A DNA stretch of 64,000 nucleotides from Actinomycetota bacterium (lineage in GTDB: Bacteria > Actinomycetota > Acidimicrobiia > Acidimicrobiales > SZUA-35), in NCBI GenBank assembly GCA_039029735.1, contig JBCCFL010000019.1:12924-76923 (forward strand). Direction: 5' to 3'. The notes under the pieces were generated by a model. The model did no database searches. It saw only the letters and a list, made by a program, of their open reading frames with translations, and was not told the DNA's origin. A program made the translations under genes and the position numbers. This document shows, one piece after another, positions 12,723 through 21,474 of the stretch; the stretch's first letter is position 1; each line of letters begins with the position of its first letter.

Positions 12723-13956
12723 GCGGATCCATCGGTTCGGCCCGCTCCCCGGGATCGGGCCCACGGAGATCGGGCCCCTCGGAATCGGTCTCAGCCCCAC
12801 GCTCGAACACCTGCACCGACAGCCCGCCGTGGCGAAATCGGGCCACCCGTCGCAGGCGACGATCGGCGGCAGCCGCAAGCTTGGGATCGGGGCACACCAT
12901 GGCCAGGCGCCAGCCGGGGAGGCGGTCACGCAGCACGGCACCGAAACGGCGGTAGAGGCCGTCCAGCGTGCCGTCGCCCAGTCGCTTCCCGTACGGCGGG
13001 TTGGCGGCGACGAGCCCAGGGGCGGGTAGCGCCTTGGTGTGCGACACCACCCTGGTCGAGAACTCGATGTCGCCGGCCACGCCAGCCCGTTCGGCGTTCG
13101 CCTCGGCCATGGCGATCACGGCGGAGTCGCGGTCGGCGCCAGCGATGATGGAGGGCGCCGATGCCGAGGCTCGGGCTGCGATCTCACCTCGAACACTGGC
13201 CCAGGTGCCGGAGTCGAACGTCGGCCACTCCTGGAAGGCGTAGGGCCGATCCCCGCCGGGTGGCAGACCGCGGGCCGCGAGGGCGGCTTCGATGGGGATC
13301 GTGCCGGCGCCGCAGAAGGGGTCGAGCAGGCCGACGTCGCCCGTCCATCCGCAGGCCATGAGCAGACCAGCCGCCATGGTGGTTCGCAGCGGCGCCTCAC
13401 CCAGCTCGGTGCGCCACGGCCGATGGTGGAGGGGCGCGCCGGATGCGTCGATCGACATGGTGACGGTGTTTCGATCGATCCGGACGATCACCAGCTGCTC
13501 GGGCTCGCCAGTGGACGGCGGGCCCACCACCTGATGGAGGCGCTGGGCGATGGCGTCGGTGTGGTAGAGCTTCGAGTCGGACGAGCTCACCCGGAACGAC
13601 GGTGCGTAGCCGGCGGGGAGCCAGCGATCCCACTCGATCTCGCCTGCCCGCTGCTGCAGGTGAGCGAAGTCGGTGGCGCGAAACGTGCCGACGCGAACCA
13701 CCACCCGCACTGCGGACCGGAGCCACACGTTGGCGGCGTAGAGCTGGCGCAGCGTGGGGTTGAACGCAACCGTGCCGGGGCCGGCGGGCTTCGGGCGGCA
13801 TCCGAGCGCCTCCAGCTCCTGGCGGCACACGAACTCCAGCCCGGGGGCGCAGACCGCAGCGGCGCTCAATCGGCGCGCCCCGCCTCGGTTGTTCTTCGCG
13901 CTGCCCGCCGACGCAGGCCGGCCCGGCGTTCGGTCCGATGTAGTGGGCGGTGTCAT
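12685..13956 (-). CDS. THUMP-domain class I SAM-dependent RNA methyltransferase (RlmL/RlmK-like)
   Basis: SAM-binding motif LLDPFCGAGTIPIEAA and catalytic motif NPPYGKR are present, with a THUMP-like N-terminal half. The C-terminal tail overlaps the convergent META gene by 38 nt. Confidence 0.75.
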   Translation of the reverse strand: MTPPTTSDRTPGRPASAGSAKNNRGGARRLSAAAVCAPGLEFVCRQELEALGCRPKPAGPGTVAFNPTLRQLYAANVWLRSAVRVVVRVGTFRATDFAHLQQRAGEIEWDRWLPAGYAPSFRVSSSDSKLYHTDAIAQRLHQVVGPPSTGEPEQLVIVRIDRNTVTMSIDASGAPLHHRPWRTELGEAPLRTTMAAGLLMACGWTGDVGLLDPFCGAGTIPIEAALAARGLPPGGDRPYAFQEWPTFDSGTWASVRGEIAARASASAPSIIAGADRDSAVIAMAEANAERAGVAGDIEFSTRVVSHTKALPAPGLVAANPPYGKRLGDGTLDGLYRRFGAVLRDRLPGWRLAMVCPDPKLAAAADRRLRRVARFRHGGLSVQVFERGAETDSEGPDLRGPDPGERAEPMDPLSARGGADPQPS

Positions 13957-14101
13957 CTCAGCGCCAAGCGTAACGGTCGTGACCCAACCAGCGGATCGTG
14001 CCGCAGACGCCGGCGCCTGCGCCCATGGGCGTCAGCCGTGCCGCGCCCACCGGCGCCACTCCGAGCTGCGTCACCCGGTGCGGCGGCACTCCCGGGCGGC
14101 G

Positions 14102-15121
14102 TCACGCAGACCAGCGGGATCGGCGGGTGGCGTCGGCGCCCAGCGATGCCCGTCGCAGGGCCCGTTCGAGCACATGCGGATCGCCGAGGCGCCGCCGGAG
14201 CTGATGCTCCAGACCGGCGATCGGGTACAGGTTCTGCGGCGCCCGGGCCTCACGGTGCGGCTCGCTGGCGAAACGGGGAAGCGCGGCGCTGATGGCATCG
14301 GCGCGGGCGGCAGCATCGTTGACGCCTGCGCCGTCGACCCTGGGCAGCTCGACGCGCACCACGCCGTCGAGCGCATGGGCCTGGTTCACCGGCAGGCGGA
14401 GATACCACGACCACCGGGGCCTCGGGTCGCCGATGGCGAACAACGGGGTGCGCTCCCCCGGGCCGAGCCGGGCGACCACCGCCTGGGTGGGCCCGTCGAG
14501 ATACTGGATCCGTTGGGTCTTCACGTACCCGGCACCGTTCAGGTGGCGGCGAGAGCGGAGGGGGCCGTCGTAGACGACGAGCTCACCCTCGGTGGCCAAC
14601 GCCTCGGAGACGGCCTCCTCGAGATCGGCCATGGCGTCGTTGATGGCCTGGTAGGTGGCCGACTCCTCCACGCCTCGGACAGGTCGAACCCGGTACCGGA
14701 TGGGTTCACCGGCCCCAGTGGCAGCGAGAACCTCGTCGCCGAGCCCTGGATGGTCACCAGCGCCACCGGGAGCGTCGCGTCGTTGCACGGCTTCCGGTGA
14801 GGTGAACACGGCCCGCTCCACCCGGGTGTCGATCACCTCGGCTCGGCCGGGAATGCACCGCACCGCACCAGCCCCGATCGTGGTGCACAGGCCCAACGCC
14901 GAGCCCTGGGGAGTATCGATCCACAGCCGACAGTCGATGCGTTGCACACCGTCGACGAACACGAGCTCGGAGGGCGCCGATCCCGGGTGCGGCCGGATTG
15001 GGGCCCACGTCTCGGGATCGACCTCGACGGACGCGTCGACCGTCGCTCCTTGGACCTCGTCGAGATCGTCGCGGGAGGCAGAACCGTAACCGGGCTCCCA
15101 GGTCTCAACGGTGAACCCCAT
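14102..15121 (-). CDS. Putative NurA-like nuclease, last gene of the herA-sbcD-sbcC operon
   Basis: 339-aa ORF whose ATG (15121) overlaps the sbcC stop by 1 nt (TGATG). The call rests mainly on operon position. An SELVFVDGVQRID stretch resembles the NurA N-terminal xxDGS acidic motif. The fold was not verified. Confidence 0.4.
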   Translation of the reverse strand: MGFTVETWEPGYGSASRDDLDEVQGATVDASVEVDPETWAPIRPHPGSAPSELVFVDGVQRIDCRLWIDTPQGSALGLCTTIGAGAVRCIPGRAEVIDTRVERAVFTSPEAVQRRDAPGGAGDHPGLGDEVLAATGAGEPIRYRVRPVRGVEESATYQAINDAMADLEEAVSEALATEGELVVYDGPLRSRRHLNGAGYVKTQRIQYLDGPTQAVVARLGPGERTPLFAIGDPRPRWSWYLRLPVNQAHALDGVVRVELPRVDGAGVNDAAARADAISAALPRFASEPHREARAPQNLYPIAGLEHQLRRRLGDPHVLERALRRASLGADATRRSRWSA

Positions 15122-17610
15122 CAGCGATCCACCCGGTCGATGGTCGAGGTGCCGCCGGCTGATCGCACCTCGAATCGCACCGGCATGCGCTCGGCCAGGT
15201 CGCGCACATGGGTGACCACGGTGACGAGTCGGCCTGCCGCCGACAGCTCCTCGATGGCCGAGGCCAACACGTCGAGCGTTTCGGGGTCGAGCGTTCCGAA
15301 TCCCTCGTCGAGGAAGATCGACTCCAGACGAGGGCCGTCGGTGGTGGCCAGCTCAGCGATCGACTCCGCCAACGCCAGCGCCAACGACAACGAGGCGAGG
15401 AAGATCTCGCCGCCCGACAGCGTGCGCACGTCTCGCCGTTCATCGGCGTTGCCGTGGTCGCGCACGGCGAACGAACCGTCGACCACCTCGAGCGAGTAGC
15501 GGCCGTTCGACAGCTCGTGAAGGCGCAACGTGGCGTGATGCACGAGATGGTCGAGCGCCTCCTGCAGCAGCCACCGCTCGAACCCGTTGGCTGCAAGGTG
15601 CCGGCCGAGCGACTCGTGCACCGTCTGCTCCTCGTCGAGCTCGGCGGCCTGACGCTCCAACTCGGTGCGGCGGCCGATGCCAGCATCGAGGGCCGCCATC
15701 TCGGCGTCGAGCCGGGCCCGAGCCGCCGCGGCCAAGGGAGCCAGGCGAGCCACGTCGTCGCTGTCAGCGGTGTCGAGATCGACGTCGGTGTCGAGGCCGG
15801 CGGCCGAGGCCTGAGCCCAGAGATCGGTGGCCAGTTTCGACCGGGCGGCCCGCAGTTCGACGCCGGCCGCCTCGATCTCGGCCAGCTGCTCCCCCAGAGC
15901 GGTCCGTCGGTCGGTCGCCCAGACCGTGAGGCGGGCCCAGGCGTTGGCCAGGGGCTGGTCGGGATCCCAGGCGGGCGCGCCGAGGGCGGTGACACGGTCG
16001 CGCTGGGCCACGAACTGGGGCCGGAGATCGGCCTCGCGGCCACTGATCGCATCGACGGCCGCTCTGGCCCTGCCGGCCGCGGTGTCGGCGCGGTCGACGG
16101 CGGCTGCGGCGGCGGACGATGCGACGGCGGCGGCCTCGGCCCGCTGGAGGTCGCCGGTCACCCGGTCGAGGGTGCTGGCGCCGGCCGCAAGTTCATCCGC
16201 CGTGAGCTGACCGGCAAGGCGCTCGTCGATCTCGGTGAGTTCAGCCCGGTGGCGGACAGCGGCGGCGGCGGCCGCATCAGTGCGCCCGTGCGCCCGAGCC
16301 GCAGCCACCGTGGCATCGTCGAGCGCCACGGCCACCGTGGCCACCAACTCGTCAGCGGTGGCGAGCGCGTCGGGCGAGGCCGTGGCTGGTACCTCGTGCA
16401 CCGTTTGTTCGCACACCGGGCACGCCTCACCGGCTCGTAGCTGATGCACCCACACGGCGGCGTCGGCCGCCTGACGGTGAGCGGCCAGCGCCGCCCGGGC
16501 GACCTCCATCTCCCCGGTGAGCCGGACCTGCTCGGCCTGCGCCGTGGTGGCGTCGGCCTCGGCCGTGCCGCGCTCGGCATCCACGTCGCGAATCTGGCTT
16601 ACGAGCGCCTCCCGCCGCACCAGCAGATCAGCGGTTCGGGCGAGCGTGGCCGCGTCGCCGGCTGCGTCGGCGGCCACCCGACACTCCTGCAGCTCGGTTC
16701 GAGCGGCGGCCAGGTCGGCCTCCGCGGCCACGGCGGCCAGGCGTGCCTGCTCCAGTTCGGTGTGGACGGCCGCCGCATGATCGGGCACGGCAACCGCGGC
16801 GAGGTCGGCGATGGCCGCTTCGGTGGTGCGGTATGTGGCGCGCCGGTCGCTCAGCTCCACATCGTGGCGCTCGATCTCGGCGAGCTGATCGCCGAGCGAG
16901 CCGGCGAACCCGTCGACCCGCTCCCCCTGCTCCGCCAGGGCGAGGCGAGCCGCGGGAGTGGCGGCCGCCAGGCGTTCGAGCTCGGCCCGCTGCGCGTCCA
17001 TCGCGTAGCCCGCACGAGTGGCCCGCTCTCGGGCCTGAGCCGCCATGTCGGCATAGAGGCCGAGATCGAGCAGGCGCCTCAGCAGGCGTTGGCGATTGGC
17101 CGGGTCGTCGGTGAGGAACTCGGCGAAGGCCCCCTGGGGGAGCACGATCGTGCGGGTGAACTGGGAGAAGTCGAGGCCGATCAAGGCTTGGACCTCGGCG
17201 TCCATCTCGCGCACCGATCCGGCGAGCACGGTGGTGGGGCCATCAGGGTCTGGCCCGTGCCAGCGCTCCAACCGAGCTTCCCGGGTCTTCGCTCGGGGTG
17301 GCGACCCTGGCGAGGCGTTCGACTCCGCTCGCCGCACCACCCGCACGGCGCTGTAGCGGGCACCAGCCAGCTCGAAATCGAAGCGCACCCGGGCCTCGAC
17401 CGCCAGCTGGCTGATCACTGGCGCCACCAGTGACGGATTGTCGTAGCGAGCCACGGAGCCGTAGAGGGCGAAGGTGATGGCGTCGATCACCGTGGACTTG
17501 CCCGATCCCGTTGGGCCCACGAGGGCGACGAGATCGAGGCCTGCGAAGTCGATCTCGGTGCGATCCCGGAAGGCACCGAACCCTTCGAGGTCGACTCGGA
17601 GCGGCCTCAC
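15121..17610 (-). CDS. sbcC: SbcC/Rad50-family DNA repair ATPase (829 aa)
   Basis: Walker A LVGPTGSGKST near the N-terminus. Long Ala/Glu/Arg-rich coiled coils with a central CxxC zinc hook (AGEACPVCEQ). C-terminal signature and Walker B: LSGGEIFLASLSLALALAE...IFLDEGFGTLD. The start overlaps the sbcD stop by 4 nt. Confidence 0.9.
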   Translation of the reverse strand: MRPLRVDLEGFGAFRDRTEIDFAGLDLVALVGPTGSGKSTVIDAITFALYGSVARYDNPSLVAPVISQLAVEARVRFDFELAGARYSAVRVVRRAESNASPGSPPRAKTREARLERWHGPDPDGPTTVLAGSVREMDAEVQALIGLDFSQFTRTIVLPQGAFAEFLTDDPANRQRLLRRLLDLGLYADMAAQARERATRAGYAMDAQRAELERLAAATPAARLALAEQGERVDGFAGSLGDQLAEIERHDVELSDRRATYRTTEAAIADLAAVAVPDHAAAVHTELEQARLAAVAAEADLAAARTELQECRVAADAAGDAATLARTADLLVRREALVSQIRDVDAERGTAEADATTAQAEQVRLTGEMEVARAALAAHRQAADAAVWVHQLRAGEACPVCEQTVHEVPATASPDALATADELVATVAVALDDATVAAARAHGRTDAAAAAAVRHRAELTEIDERLAGQLTADELAAGASTLDRVTGDLQRAEAAAVASSAAAAAVDRADTAAGRARAAVDAISGREADLRPQFVAQRDRVTALGAPAWDPDQPLANAWARLTVWATDRRTALGEQLAEIEAAGVELRAARSKLATDLWAQASAAGLDTDVDLDTADSDDVARLAPLAAAARARLDAEMAALDAGIGRRTELERQAAELDEEQTVHESLGRHLAANGFERWLLQEALDHLVHHATLRLHELSNGRYSLEVVDGSFAVRDHGNADERRDVRTLSGGEIFLASLSLALALAESIAELATTDGPRLESIFLDEGFGTLDPETLDVLASAIEELSAAGRLVTVVTHVRDLAERMPVRFEVRSAGGTSTIDRVDR

Positions 17611-18917
17611 AGGCCCATGCTCAGTTGCTCGGCGTCGGCGCTCTCGGCCGCCGACGAGGGGTCGGTGCGCTCGGGCTCGGCTGGTTCCGCCCCGTCGGCC
17701 ACCTCAGGGGTGACGTGCTCGTCGTGGAGCGCAGTGAACGCCGCCACCAGGCGGGGGTCGTTCACCTCTCGCTCGGTGAGGTACTCGGCGAAGAGCTCGG
17801 TGGGGCTCAGCCCATCGCGGCGGGCTCGCACCTGGGCGCGCTGGTCGCCCAACACCCGAGACTCGATCCGTACATCGACCACGGCAGGCCCGATGGCCGC
17901 TCGCACCTCGTCGGCGAGGCCGGCTCGGGCTTGCTCGGTGAGGCGCACCCGAATCCATGGCACGCCGGCATCGCCTCCATTGGCCACCGCCTCCTCGCCC
18001 GCTCCTCCCGAGCCGGAGCCGGGGAAGGCTCCGAGCTCACGAGCCTGCGCTCGCACGTCGTCGAGGGTGCCGACCAAGGTGACGAGCGATCGACCGGACC
18101 GCAGAGGCACCGCTGTCACCTTGGCCGGCAGACCGGGTTCGCAGGTTGCGAGGTTGATCTGCTTGATCTGGGCTTCTTCACCGAAGTCGAGCGCCAACGG
18201 AGAGCCGCAGTAGTGCACGGCCATTGGCGCCGGAAGCTGCTGAGGGCGGTGAAGATGGCCCAGGGCAACGTAGTTCGCCGTGGTGGGGAGATCGGGAATG
18301 GTCACGCCGTACTCGTCGGCCAGGTGGGCCGACCGCTCTCCCCCGCCGGCCTTGGCGCCGGTGACGAACAGGTGGGCGGCGAGCAGATTCACCGAGTCGC
18401 CGTCGAACCCGGTGGCCAGCGCTGCCATCACAGCCCTAATCCGCTCGGCGTAGGTCTGCACGTTCCGGAAGGCGGCCGAGTCCATGAGGTCGGCGGCTCG
18501 GATGATCGCCCGCTGGGACTGGAACGGCAACAGGGCCACGTTCACCGGCACGCCGCCGGCACTGAGCCGCAGCACCCCACCGTCATCGGGGCGCCGCAGG
18601 GCGGCCGCCATCGTGATGCGGCCGAGCTGCAGCGGCCGAGCCACAGCATCGAGGCGCCGCGGGTTGTCGTGATTGCCGGCGACAACCACCACCGGGGCGA
18701 CCTCCGCCAGATCGAGCAGGGCGTCGTAGACGAGCGCCTCACTCTCGGCGGTCGGCGCCGCAGTGTCGAACAGGTCGCCGACCACGAGCGACAGATCGAC
18801 CTCTTCGGCCCGGGCGACCGACACGATCTCGGCGAGCACGGCGCGATGCTCGCCAGCACGACTGTGGCCGCGGATCGCCTTCCCGACGTGCCAGTCAGAG
18901 GTGTGGAGCAGCTTCAT
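17607..18917 (-). CDS. sbcD: SbcD/Mre11-family nuclease
   Basis: MKLLHTSDWHVGK..., VVGDLFD and VVVAGNHDNP are calcineurin-like phosphoesterase motifs. I prefer ATG 18917; the ORF-track start 18926 is a GTG three codons upstream. Confidence 0.9.
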   Translation of the reverse strand: MKLLHTSDWHVGKAIRGHSRAGEHRAVLAEIVSVARAEEVDLSLVVGDLFDTAAPTAESEALVYDALLDLAEVAPVVVVAGNHDNPRRLDAVARPLQLGRITMAAALRRPDDGGVLRLSAGGVPVNVALLPFQSQRAIIRAADLMDSAAFRNVQTYAERIRAVMAALATGFDGDSVNLLAAHLFVTGAKAGGGERSAHLADEYGVTIPDLPTTANYVALGHLHRPQQLPAPMAVHYCGSPLALDFGEEAQIKQINLATCEPGLPAKVTAVPLRSGRSLVTLVGTLDDVRAQARELGAFPGSGSGGAGEEAVANGGDAGVPWIRVRLTEQARAGLADEVRAAIGPAVVDVRIESRVLGDQRAQVRARRDGLSPTELFAEYLTEREVNDPRLVAAFTALHDEHVTPEVADGAEPAEPERTDPSSAAESADAEQLSMGL

Positions 18918-18950
18918 GGCCGCCACCGCACTGCGACGAGGCCGACCATG

Positions 18951-20726
18951 TCATCCGACCAGCCCGGCGAACGGGTCGGCGGTGGCACCGCTCTCGCTGA
19001 GATCGAGCGTGTCGCGATCGCCGTTGGCCACGGCCGCCTCGGCCGACCGGGTGGCCCAGGCCGGGAACGGGAACTCCACGAGCAGTGGCACCGGGAGGCG
19101 GGGCTGGGCCACGTACATCGAGCCCGGCTTGAGGATCGTGGCCCGCTGGCGCTGAACCGCCGGCAGGAACCCGTACTCGTCGCGCCGAGCCTCGGCCGGG
19201 TCGAGCCGGCCCACGACGCGGATGGCGCTGTTGGCCACCACCCGGCGCTCCACCTCGCTCGCCGTCTGTTGGGCGCCGATCAAGATAATGCCGAGGGAGC
19301 GCCCGCGCTCGGCCACGTCGAGCAGGATCTCCTTGATCGGGCTGGACGAGTCGCGCGGGGCGTACTTGTTGAGCTCGTCGAGCACCACGAGCTGGAGGGG
19401 CTTGGCCACCCCGCTCGCCTCTTTGGCCTCGAACGCCTGGCGCAGCACAACACCCACCACGAACCGCTTGGCCCGATCGTGGAGCGCGTGCAGGTCGACC
19501 ACCGTCACCTGGTGCCGATCGAGGTCGAGCCCGTATGAGGTGGCTTCGCTCACGTCGGCCCGGATGAGGTGCTCGACGTGGCGACGGGCTGAGGCGAGAC
19601 GGCGTACGAACGCGCTCACGGTGCCGCCGCTGACGGCCCGGCCCGTCCACCGGCTGGTTTCGGCGGGATCGGCGGAGTCGTCGGGGAGCAGCTTCGCCTC
19701 GATCGCGTCGACCAACTGCCCGAAGGTGCGGATCGTCTGGCCGTCGAGGCGAACGGCTCCGTCGCCGGCATCGCTCAGCTGAGCCAGCTGGGCGGTGACG
19801 GCCTGCACCACGATCGTGTACTGCTGGCGCTCGTCCTCGGCATCGGCGAAGAGGAACGGGAGCAGGCCCTGGCGGCAGAAGTCGGCCACGGTCCACAGGA
19901 ACGGGCTCACGCCGAGGTGGCGCGAGCCGGTGGCCGGCGTTGCGTTGGGGTCGCCCTTGCGGGGAGGGGCCAGGATGCCGACGTCGGCGAAGGGCCGGGG
20001 GGCGAGACCGAGGGCGTCGTAGCGGGCGGCCCGATCGGGGGCGAGGGCGGTGTTGGCGTGATCGAGGAAGAGCAGGTCCTCCCCCTTGACGTTGAAGATC
20101 AGGGCCTTAGTGTTGGCCGCCTCGGCCCCGAGCACGCCGGAGTTGAACATCGAGTAGAGCAGGAAGGTGGCATAGCTGGTTTTCGTGGCAACGCCCGACA
20201 CGCCCGAGATGTTGATGTGGGCGCCCTTGGTGCCGTCGACGAAGTCGAGGTCGAGGAACACGGGCTCCCCGCTGCGGGACAACCCGGCCGGCAGCTTGCG
20301 CTCGACCTCGTCGAACGACAGCGCAAGGTCGCGTTCGGCGTCGGTGGCCAGGCGCACGGCGTTGCCCGGGAGCGGCGGGAGCAGCACCTCCGGCTCGAAG
20401 CGGGTGGGCTGCACGAGCGCTGCTTCGCTCACTTCGGCTGGGAGCACGCCATCATCGATCAGGAACACGTCGCTCTGGAACTTGGCGCCCTCGTGACGGG
20501 CCCGCACCTGGGTGACGATGCCGAAGATCGACAGCCGATCTCCCTCGGGGAGCACCCGGTCCACCGCCACCACGTCGTCGAGCTGGAGGGTGCGGCCGGG
20601 CGCGACGGCAACCCAGAACTCGAGTGGGGTGGCGTCGTCGATGCCCAGCACCAGGCCCACCGCAGGGCCCTCGGAGCCGGACTGGCCCCCGTTCAGCGTG
20701 TGATTCGAGGCATCCGCCATTCCCAT
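18951..20726 (-). CDS. herA: HerA/FtsK-like ATPase (DUF87-type) with an N-terminal HAS-barrel-like region
   Basis: ORF 18951..20783(-) was trimmed to ATG 20726 (alternative 20720). HAS-barrel-like stretch: LEFWVAVAPGRTLQLDDVVAVD...IFGIVTQVRARHEG. The P-loop region ISGVSGVATKTSYATFLL is deviant, with Thr rather than Gly before the Lys. Walker B is LQLVVLDELNKYAP, followed by GRSLGIILIGAQQTASEV. Confidence 0.7.
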   Translation of the reverse strand: MGMADASNHTLNGGQSGSEGPAVGLVLGIDDATPLEFWVAVAPGRTLQLDDVVAVDRVLPEGDRLSIFGIVTQVRARHEGAKFQSDVFLIDDGVLPAEVSEAALVQPTRFEPEVLLPPLPGNAVRLATDAERDLALSFDEVERKLPAGLSRSGEPVFLDLDFVDGTKGAHINISGVSGVATKTSYATFLLYSMFNSGVLGAEAANTKALIFNVKGEDLLFLDHANTALAPDRAARYDALGLAPRPFADVGILAPPRKGDPNATPATGSRHLGVSPFLWTVADFCRQGLLPFLFADAEDERQQYTIVVQAVTAQLAQLSDAGDGAVRLDGQTIRTFGQLVDAIEAKLLPDDSADPAETSRWTGRAVSGGTVSAFVRRLASARRHVEHLIRADVSEATSYGLDLDRHQVTVVDLHALHDRAKRFVVGVVLRQAFEAKEASGVAKPLQLVVLDELNKYAPRDSSSPIKEILLDVAERGRSLGIILIGAQQTASEVERRVVANSAIRVVGRLDPAEARRDEYGFLPAVQRQRATILKPGSMYVAQPRLPVPLLVEFPFPAWATRSAEAAVANGDRDTLDLSESGATADPFAGLVG

Positions 20727-20805
20727 CAACGCTAGGCGGGCCCAGTGACACTCGGGCTGATACTTCCTCCCCAAACTCGCCAAACCCAGGGGCAGTGGCG
20801 ACCGG

Positions 20806-21474
20806 TCAGAGCGAGAACGGCTCGCCGTCGGCCGTCTCGCGCACCACGAACTCCTCCACGGCCACCCGCCGGAGCTTCGTGAGCTGCTTCACGGGCTTGC
20901 CGATCGGCACCAGGGCCGCCACTGCCTCATGCGGTTCGAGGTTGAGCATCTCCTGCACCTCGGGTTCGGCACTGGTGATCAGCGTGGTCATCGTGCCGCC
21001 GAGGCCCTCGTTGCGAGCCGAGAGGATGATGTTCCAGACCAGCGGGTAGATGGAGGCTCCGCTCGCCACCCCGATCCGGTCGAGATGCCAGTCGGTCGAC
21101 GCCACCTTGCGGAGATCCACGGTGACGATCAGCACCACCGGTACCTCCCCCATCGCCCGGAACATGGGCAGGATGTCCGACGGGGTGGCCTTGGCCTTCT
21201 CGAGATCCACCGTGGTGGGCACGATCGTGTTCCACGGGAACTCGCCGGCCTGGCGCTGCTGGTCGTAGATGCGGAGCGCGGGCTCGCACAACAACCCGAG
21301 GCGCTGCTTGCGCTCGGTGTCGCGAACCACGATCACCCGCTGACCCTGCCGGTTCCCGCCTGAGGGGGCGAACCGGGCGTTGTCGAAGATGCGATGGAGT
21401 GTCTCGTCGGTCACCGGGTCGTCGGTGAACTCCCGGGCTGCGAACGTGGTGCGCATGACGTCGTAGAGATCCAT
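20806..21474 (-). CDS. Nitroreductase family protein
   Basis: MDLYDVMRTTFAAREFTDDPVTDETLHRIFDNARFAPSGGNRQGQRVIVV is a typical nitroreductase N-terminus. Confidence 0.8.
   Translation of the reverse strand: MDLYDVMRTTFAAREFTDDPVTDETLHRIFDNARFAPSGGNRQGQRVIVVRDTERKQRLGLLCEPALRIYDQQRQAGEFPWNTIVPTTVDLEKAKATPSDILPMFRAMGEVPVVLIVTVDLRKVASTDWHLDRIGVASGASIYPLVWNIILSARNEGLGGTMTTLITSAEPEVQEMLNLEPHEAVAALVPIGKPVKQLTKLRRVAVEEFVVRETADGEPFSL

Follow-up and report, generated by a model that had tools for sequence, protein, structure and literature searches.

Bacterial HerA-NurA is known from Deinococcus radiodurans (PDB 7F6D, 7WRW/7WRX; PMC9960219; Cheng 2015), where the complex hydrolyses ATP in a DNA-dependent manner and, as a nuclease, resects DNA ends (PMC9960219). 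Reviews draw the bacterial system from Deinococcus and Thermus only, and in these genera the pairs are unlinked to SbcCD and show puzzling phenotypes. In the archaeal Sulfolobales the genes are ordered herA-mre11-rad50-nurA (PMC13748450), while in the bacterium Oceanithermus profundus the arrangement nurA-hepA-sbcD-sbcC was noted by Blesa et al. 2017, who took the linkage as local recruitment of sbcCD (PMC5448004), and the link of HerA-NurA to sbcCD was left open by an earlier paper (PMC4663267). Here we examined a herA-sbcD-sbcC-nurA locus within 64,000 nucleotides (nt) of DNA from an Actinomycetota bacterium of the order Acidimicrobiales (GenBank assembly GCA_039029735.1, contig JBCCFL010000019.1, positions 12,924 to 76,923 of the forward strand), with the whole of this stretch referred to as the window. 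We consider it likely that this locus is a chromosomal, single-copy, four-gene operon for the processing of double-strand-break ends in bacteria, which is probably inducible by DNA damage and operates beside an AdnAB/AddAB-like enzyme.

Four bacterial-type repair proteins encoded head to tail

Between positions 14102 and 20783 the minus strand holds four long open reading frames (ORFs) in tandem, as determined from the ORF listing and by reading the junctions directly. The first gene, herA (18951..20720; 589 amino acids, aa), ends with a TGA stop at 18953-18951 and is followed after a gap of 33 nt by the ATG of sbcD at 18917, a start that yields the usual MKLLHTSDWH N-terminus. The sbcD gene (17607..18917; 436 aa) and sbcC (15121..17610; 829 aa) overlap by 4 nt, with GTGA common to both, and sbcC and nurA (14102..15121; 339 aa) overlap by 1 nt, with TGATG common to both. 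These coordinates and spacings are as given in an initial annotation of this DNA, made from the sequence alone, whose description of the operon as fully translationally coupled is slightly overstated for herA-sbcD, where there is a gap. Its four protein identities were likewise borne out, as intact proteins, by sequence search of the PDB, by NCBIfam and Pfam models and by fold matching. Scanning 13500..21200 revealed neither a sigma-70-like promoter nor an intrinsic terminator inside the operon. All four genes are single-copy in the 6.05-Mb assembly, and the guanine-cytosine (GC) fraction of the four-gene region is 0.70-0.73 versus 0.65-0.70 for the rest of the window, which is high in GC throughout (0.65-0.73).

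Using phmmer against the PDB, HerA was matched to D. radiodurans HerA (7f6d_B) with an E value of 1.1e-145, with residues 12-317 and 326-564 aligned and an identity of roughly 55%, and it is assigned to the bacterial clade of this hexameric DNA translocase/ATPase. The protein had been annotated from a start at 20726 (591 aa), but the ATG at 20720 (589 aa) is more likely, since the -10 hexamer of the putative promoter described below ends 8 nt before it, and this is also the start chosen by the gene caller. In the 591-aa reading the Walker A motif SGVATKTS occupies residues 177-184 and includes K182/T183, the Walker B motif VLDELNKY includes D450/E451, and the region of the catalytic acid reads NVKGED. 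These positions align with K175/T176, D487/E488 and D220 of D. radiodurans HerA, respectively, and the residues of all three regions were invariant in an alignment of twelve relatives. The Walker A of the D. radiodurans protein is ISGISGVATKTSYA, and in the crystal structure K175 contacts the beta-phosphate and T176 binds Mg2+ (PMC9960219); the P-loop of the window HerA, which had initially been called deviant, is therefore the experimentally verified Walker A of D. radiodurans HerA. By analogy with that enzyme, a hexameric ring with DNA-dependent ATPase and translocase activity would be expected (PMC9960219). Standard models do not recognise this protein, with no Pfam match at E<=0.1 (DUF87 and HAS-barrel included) and a HerA_Thermprot score of just 12 bits where the cut-off is 800. 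The curated HerA models describe archaeal HerA and miss the Deinococcus-type clade, and the annotation found in relatives is generic, with names such as 'ATP-binding protein' or 'hypothetical protein'.

The SbcD protein, a nuclease subunit of the Mre11 family, scored 156.9 bits against NCBIfam TIGR00619 (sbcd; cut-off 77.65), and 166.7 bits against sbcd_Bac versus 45 bits against Mre11_Sulfo, with all five phosphoesterase motifs present (DWH, GDLFD, GNHD, HLFVTG and GHLH). SbcC, a Rad50-family ATPase with a short coiled coil, exceeded the cut-offs of Pfam AAA_23 and SbcC_Walker_B; against TIGR00618 (sbcc) its score of 247.7 bits was under the cut-off of 478.5, with matches in the head domains only. 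The same comparison favoured the bacterial family, with 248 bits to sbcc versus 73 bits to Rad50_Halo. The Walker A motif GPTGSGKS (residues 32-39), the LSGGE signature (731), the Walker B motif IFLDE (765) and the H-loop TH (800) are all in place, and the CxxC zinc hook noticed in the initial annotation is present as a central CPVC at residues 397-400 of 829, encoded at 16411..16422 on the minus strand. Judged by these matches, both SbcD and SbcC are of bacterial type.

The 339-aa product of the last gene had been thought a possibly divergent or different nuclease, with a profile and structure search of 14102..15121 against NurA proposed as the check, and such searches gave a clear NurA by sequence, fold and conserved motifs. 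In phmmer searches of the PDB it matched D. radiodurans NurA (7f6d_H) with an E value of 8.5e-22. An AlphaFold model built from 36 homologues (predicted local distance difference test, pLDDT, 88.5; predicted template modelling score 0.87) was then compared with the PDB using Foldseek, and the matches were to D. radiodurans NurA (7f6d_G; E=3e-18), Thermotoga TM1739 (1zup; 1e-13), Sulfolobus solfataricus NurA (2ygk; 1e-5) and P. furiosus NurA (3taz), followed by EndoV, all of them RNase H-like folds. Structural identity to D. radiodurans NurA was 28%. In the 36-sequence alignment D57 (FVDG), E168, D185 (YDGP), K201, R293-APQNL and E305 are invariant and H289 (EPHxxxRAPQNL) is nearly so (at least 90% of the sequences), and by the published definitions of the three NurA motifs (PMC13748450), motif I (xxVDG), motif II (xxxDG) and the C-terminal motif III with its His are all present. 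The window NurA gave no Pfam match at E<=0.1, and so none to PF09376 (NurA), for which a precomputed match exists in about 20 of the 120 relatives listed. Mn2+-dependent 5'-3' exonuclease and endonuclease activity and a dimer seated on HerA would be expected of a NurA. NurA diverges far faster than HerA, with no more than 52-55% identity to the NurA of relatives in which HerA is 85% identical. We also observed an extra Gly/Ala/Pro-rich loop of ~20 residues (window 14714-14785; NurA residues ~113-136; pLDDT 64-70) that is missing from most relatives.

Distribution, gene order and origin of the cluster

To survey close relatives we compared a HerA profile with one genome per prokaryotic species, and took the best 79 loci of more than 593 encoding stretches. 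These best 79 belong to the Acidimicrobiia (Microthrixaceae, Ilumatobacteraceae, Iamiaceae and the cultured Salinilacustrithrix flava) and the Nitriliruptoria (Egicoccus and Euzebyaceae), and tblastn analysis showed herA-sbcD-sbcC-nurA, with order and strand kept, in nearly all of those with enough downstream DNA. Among 401 sampled Actinomycetota genomes, 90 encode HerA (E<=1e-30), and in 80 of these that were checked further NurA was found by profile search in 79 and SbcD in all 80. In 76 of the 80, herA and sbcD share a contig, and in every one of these 76 sbcD follows herA in the same orientation, usually at a distance of tens of bases, although a few genomes carry inserts of 2.7-14 kb. When 20 Actinomycetota regions were fetched, all four genes were contiguous in each, with both of the gene orders described below represented. 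Likewise, in a second phylum, that of locus L062 (Acidobacteriota per NCBI), HerA was detected in 7 of 251 genomes and the four-gene cluster was present in 5/5 fetched regions, again with both orders occurring. The four genes are no chance juxtaposition, because they occur together in nearly all 79 related loci with enough flanking DNA and in 25/25 fetched regions.

At a finer scale, HerA was found in 12/12 sampled genomes of the window's genus but is lacking in most of the order's other families, and this patchy distribution, over a genus, other classes and a second phylum, implies repeated loss and/or transfer. The expectation in the initial annotation that bacterial sbcCD stands alone with herA-nurA as a separate locus thus applies to Deinococcus and Thermus, but not to Actinomycetota, in which all 76 same-contig genomes have the linkage; and the rarity it had implied gives way to a cluster that is common in relatives, as is apparent from the 90 HerA-bearing genomes of 401.

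Two gene orders account for the clusters. The order of the window, herA-sbcD-sbcC-nurA (type A), was found in 25 of the 80 Actinomycetota genomes checked plus ~5 in which it is split by contig ends, and here HerA is at least 60% identical to that of the window, with one exception at 52%. The other, nurA-herA-sbcD-sbcC (type B), was found in 45/80 genomes, in five of which nurA overlaps herA, and the HerA proteins are 43-58% identical to that of the window. In a maximum-likelihood tree of HerA all type-A rows fell on one side of a branch with support of 95/98 (99/99 in a second run), and under a midpoint root the type-A group was nested among type-B rows. The simplest reading of this tree would be a single move of nurA within bacteria, from the first to the last position in the operon, starting from an older nurA-herA-sbcD-sbcC. 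D. radiodurans HerA, partly rebuilt from a printed alignment, fell within the HerA diversity of four-gene clusters on a long branch, which hints that the isolated Deinococcus nurA-herA pair may be a derived state, depending on the root.

The match to the crenarchaeal gene order that had been noticed at the outset holds, in that the window has herA, mre11 (sbcD), rad50 (sbcC) and nurA on one strand. The archaeal flavour given to it does not, with SbcD and SbcC belonging to bacterial families, HerA and NurA grouping with Deinococcus and the order marking a derived bacterial group. Because the SbcCD proteins are of bacterial type and type A forms a single derived group in the HerA tree, the identity with the Sulfolobales order looks convergent and not inherited.

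Several side observations concern how the cluster is built in related genomes. Inserts of 1-14 kb interrupt it, either between herA and sbcD or, elsewhere, between sbcC and nurA, in L009, L012, L017, L041, L058 and L068, and in G072, G179, G068, G401, G027, G235 and G149, and the cluster evidently tolerates splitting of this kind. Within one sub-clade of the nearest relatives, an ORF of ~546 aa that begins at the sbcC stop is conserved (L002:6067-7695, L003:6189-7376, L005:15415-17025, L006:15426-17066 and L008:15591-17201), with the products being 62-79% identical and having the look of multi-pass membrane proteins. This ORF was considered as a replacement for NurA and rejected on account of that look, an hhalign probability of 0.2% against NurA and the lack of any PDB or Pfam match. 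In L005 and L008, nurA itself lies ~2.5 kb further on, past a DUF2786/DUF7168 gene on the opposite strand. In the closest relative, L001 (15358-16341), there is an in-frame stop in the NurA frame 18 codons before the aligned end, and in L076 (13782-13932) SbcC seems truncated, with NurA detectable only as an N-terminal stretch of ~40 residues, both being signs of local cluster decay in some genomes.

A putative promoter upstream of herA and a candidate damage regulon

Between the upstream nitroreductase gene and herA we identified the sequence TGTCACTG-N8-TAGCGT (20729..20750, minus strand, reading from 20750 to 20729), a putative promoter of the RecA-NDp/PafBC type. Given the geometry of its -10 hexamer (TAGCGT) relative to the ATG, the herA mRNA is probably leaderless. 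The mycobacterial upstream element in the 2004 work of Gamulin reportedly reads TGTCGGTG, with TGTCGGTG-N8-TAnnnT as the full consensus. We scanned the 200 nt that precede the first cluster gene in relatives, with a background of 0.006 per 230 nt, and the motif [TCG]GTC[AG]N-N10-TAnnnT was present in 39/86 type-A and 9/15 type-B loci, an enrichment of ~80-fold. In the type-B loci the motif precedes nurA, which is the first gene there.

Across the window's genome, TGTCAC-N10-TAnnnT occurs 30 times versus 6-13 times in shuffled sequences. The strict mycobacterial form TGTC[AG]NTG-N8-TAnnnT occurs 8 times versus 3-7 in genome-wide shuffles, which is uninformative alone, and the looser TGTCR-N11-TAnnnT is not enriched genome-wide (57 versus 64-71); the signal is carried only by the TGTCAC form together with its position beside start codons. 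Genes with TGTCAC-N10-TAnnnT 4-13 nt before their starts include pafA, uvrB, radA, dnaE2 (error-prone polymerase), an lhr-like gene and a uvrD/PcrA-like helicase gene, as well as those for a DEAH helicase, rmuC, an alkZ-like crosslink glycosylase and an HNH endonuclease. Furthermore, the genome encodes an HTH_11-WYL-WCX regulator of the PafB/PafC type, which is itself behind this motif. The 30 sites mark a candidate RecA-independent damage regulon, the gene content of which agrees with that expected of this regulon in actinobacteria (PMC6789036, PMC8223512), and induction of the operon by DNA damage via the PafBC-type promoter is probable on this evidence.

Most motif-bearing genes of the candidate regulon appear leaderless. 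Three of them are paralogues of ~138-146 aa with N-termini of the form ..LWGRxLRM.. (C24:39900-40319, C37:32235-32648 and C84:12297-12737; L110, L116 and L119), each of which starts 7 nt behind TGTCAC-N10-TAnnnT and is without a Pfam or NCBIfam match, and these are candidates for uncharacterised proteins of the damage regulon.

Proposed end processing by the four proteins and comparison with known systems

The window's genome also encodes an overlapping pair of genes (C54:20650-27047; L123:4151-10548). One product (1015 aa) has a PD-(D/E)XK domain at its C terminus, and the other (1117 aa) is a UvrD-type helicase with such a domain in the same place; from this domain content the pair is an AdnAB/AddAB-like end-resection enzyme. 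Because this pair is present, HerA-SbcCD-NurA would be an additional resection pathway and not the sole one. We propose that SbcCD, the bacterial Mre11-Rad50, would recognise DNA ends, tether them via its zinc hook, and open or clean blocked ends and hairpins, and that a HerA hexamer capped by a NurA dimer would then thread the duplex and degrade it processively to give a substrate for RecA. One RecA-NDp/PafBC-type promoter before herA would give a single, probably leaderless mRNA, induced by damage together with uvrB, radA, dnaE2 and lhr, and the four proteins would act beside the AdnAB/AddAB-like helicase-nuclease without replacing it. We infer cooperation between HerA-NurA and SbcCD because their linkage survived rearrangement and spans phyla, and because Mre11 interacts with HerA in archaea (PMC2288612). 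Co-transcription, damage induction and the polarity of resection would likewise be expected of this scheme.

A broader version of the proposal is put forward tentatively, and with rather more doubt than confidence. Here HerA-NurA and SbcCD would form one four-protein machine and a third bacterial resection pathway beside RecBCD/AddAB/AdnAB and RecQ-RecJ, with the four-gene cluster as the usual bacterial state, the isolated Deinococcus and Thermus pairs as derived, and a RecA-independent PafBC switch in Actinomycetota. The Sulfolobales-like order would have been reached independently, hinting at selection on order, for example through assembly order or stoichiometry.

A number of points weigh against a dedicated, damage-induced role of the operon in end resection. 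With the D. radiodurans NurA-HerA complex, cleavage of both strands was observed in vitro (PMC9960219), and clean 5' resection is thus not implied. Mutants of nurA/herA in D. radiodurans and T. thermophilus have mild or even paradoxical phenotypes, the effects reported being a small contribution to radiation resistance (PMC4663267) and ultraviolet (UV) resistance upon inactivation (Fujii 2018). Such phenotypes counsel caution about a central role in resection in any bacterium. With regard to the promoter, the herA element differs at two of eight positions from the mycobacterial TGTCGGTG, and several of the closest relatives (among L001-L008) have a good -10 hexamer but another upstream element. 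The direction proposed for the nurA move assumes the midpoint root. In addition, NurA was found nowhere in the genomes of the close relatives L002 and L006, so that either SbcCD-HerA can stand alone or these metagenome-assembled genomes are incomplete.

Of the competing explanations, the one to survive best, which we still regard as unlikely, is that the four genes are neighbours with separate functions, with SbcCD doing its customary bacterial work on hairpins and protein-blocked ends at replication forks, HerA-NurA modulating RecJ or restraining growth and recombination, as has been suggested in Deinococcus and Thermus, and the linkage reflecting shared damage regulation only. D. radiodurans HerA binds and stimulates RecJ, which would fit this explanation as well as the minor part of nurA and herA in radiation resistance does (PMC4663267), and the same can be said of the unlinked Deinococcus and Thermus pairs, of the 33-nt gap without overlap at the herA-sbcD junction, and of the toleration, in several relatives, of 1-14 kb inserts between herA and sbcD. 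However, in all 76 of the 80 genomes in which the two genes share a contig, sbcD follows herA in the same orientation, and the linkage outlived the rearrangement of nurA and is present in a second phylum too. It is far stronger than shared regulation needs, because the other members of the regulon are scattered over the genome, and the archaeal interaction of Mre11 with HerA (PMC2288612) also argues for joint function.

We consider it very unlikely that the locus serves in defence against phages or plasmids by degrading foreign linear DNA, even though according to a 2026 review the degradation of viral DNA is the main task of bacterial NurA-HerA (PMC13748450), HerA-like and SMC-like ATPases are employed by defence systems, and the distribution is patchy within the order. 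The weak PADLOC matches that we obtained, of HerA to mad8 (2.4e-10) and to 'HerA, Type III coevolved' (1.8e-9) and of SbcC to mad3 (2.4e-25) and LmuB (7e-15), are confined to generic parts of the ATPases and fall far short of the matches to repair proteins. The neighbours of this single-copy locus are metabolic and housekeeping genes, encoding a nitroreductase, an RlmL-like methyltransferase, an acyl-CoA dehydrogenase and a glyoxalase, with no defence or mobile genes adjoining, and going by these the locus is no defence island. Furthermore, the cluster is kept in 12/12 genomes of the genus and across classes, its promoter is of the damage type common to uvrB, radA and dnaE2, and its GC fraction of 0.70-0.73 is in line with the 0.65-0.70 of the window; on the strength of neighbours, conservation, promoter and weak PADLOC matches the defence-island reading was rejected.

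Import of the whole block from a thermophilic archaeon, with the Sulfolobales order inherited, is suggested by the identical gene order (PMC13748450) and by older literature that takes bacterial HerA as archaeal in origin (PMC5448004), but was rejected as extremely improbable given the bacterial-type proteins (SbcD, 167 bits to sbcd_Bac versus 45 to Mre11_Sulfo; SbcC, 248 bits to sbcc versus 73 to Rad50_Halo; HerA, 12 bits to HerA_Thermprot versus E=1e-145 to D. radiodurans HerA; NurA, best structural match bacterial), the position of the type-A order as a derived group among type-B clusters on the HerA tree and a GC fraction native to the genome.

End processing by a linked HerA-SbcCD-NurA set, as we propose it, can be set against four described systems. 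With D. radiodurans HerA-NurA the window proteins share the bacterial clade, the Walker A (ISGxSGVATKTS) and Walker B (VVLDELNKY) motifs and the NurA DG motifs, and by analogy the architecture of a HerA hexamer with a NurA dimer would be expected here too. Unlike D. radiodurans, which has an isolated nurA-herA operon away from sbcCD, the window has sbcD and sbcC between herA and a last-placed nurA; in addition, its NurA has the extra ~20-residue loop and its regulation is probably of the PafBC type.

The herA-mre11-rad50-nurA operon of Sulfolobales and Pyrococcus furiosus shares with the window the four functional roles and the gene order, and it is UV-induced (PMC5448004), a damage inducibility that for the window is predicted from the promoter motif. 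The split of tasks proposed for it, with short-range resection by Mre11-Rad50 and long-range resection by HerA-NurA, may also apply here. In contrast to the archaeal operon, the window proteins are of bacterial type and their order appears to stem from a bacterial rearrangement, and the host is a mesophilic-looking, high-GC actinobacterium that has an AdnAB/AddAB-like enzyme too.

The mycobacterial PafBC/RecA-NDp regulon (PMC6789036, PMC8223512) is similar in its TGTC-type element, its 12-nt spacing, its TAnnnT hexamer and the closeness of the promoter to the start codon, as well as in the presence of the motif before uvrB, radA, dnaE2, lhr, helicase genes and pafA and in the HTH-WYL-WCX regulator encoded. 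In contrast, herA, sbcCD and nurA are not known to be members of that regulon, and the element of the window is TGTCAC and not the TGTCGG of mycobacteria.

In about a fifth of the sampled Actinomycetota and in a second phylum, then, the four genes are one conserved unit, which is probably damage-responsive. It provides mesophilic bacterial proteins with which the complete four-protein reaction could be reconstituted, and a bacterial system in which to ask how HerA-NurA and Mre11-Rad50 are coupled, a question that also stands in archaea; our survey also corrects a statement in the current literature.

Oceanithermus profundus is alike in having bacterial HerA-NurA linked directly to bacterial SbcD-SbcC, in what is here termed the type-B order, and differs from the window in that nurA is placed first and the phylum is Deinococcota. 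The linkage as such is therefore already known (Oceanithermus, 2017), all the parts are of known families, and this is no new kind of system. Our survey suggests that the four-gene state is the common one, and herA-sbcD-sbcC-nurA is an under-described bacterial repair module, not a rare archaeal import.

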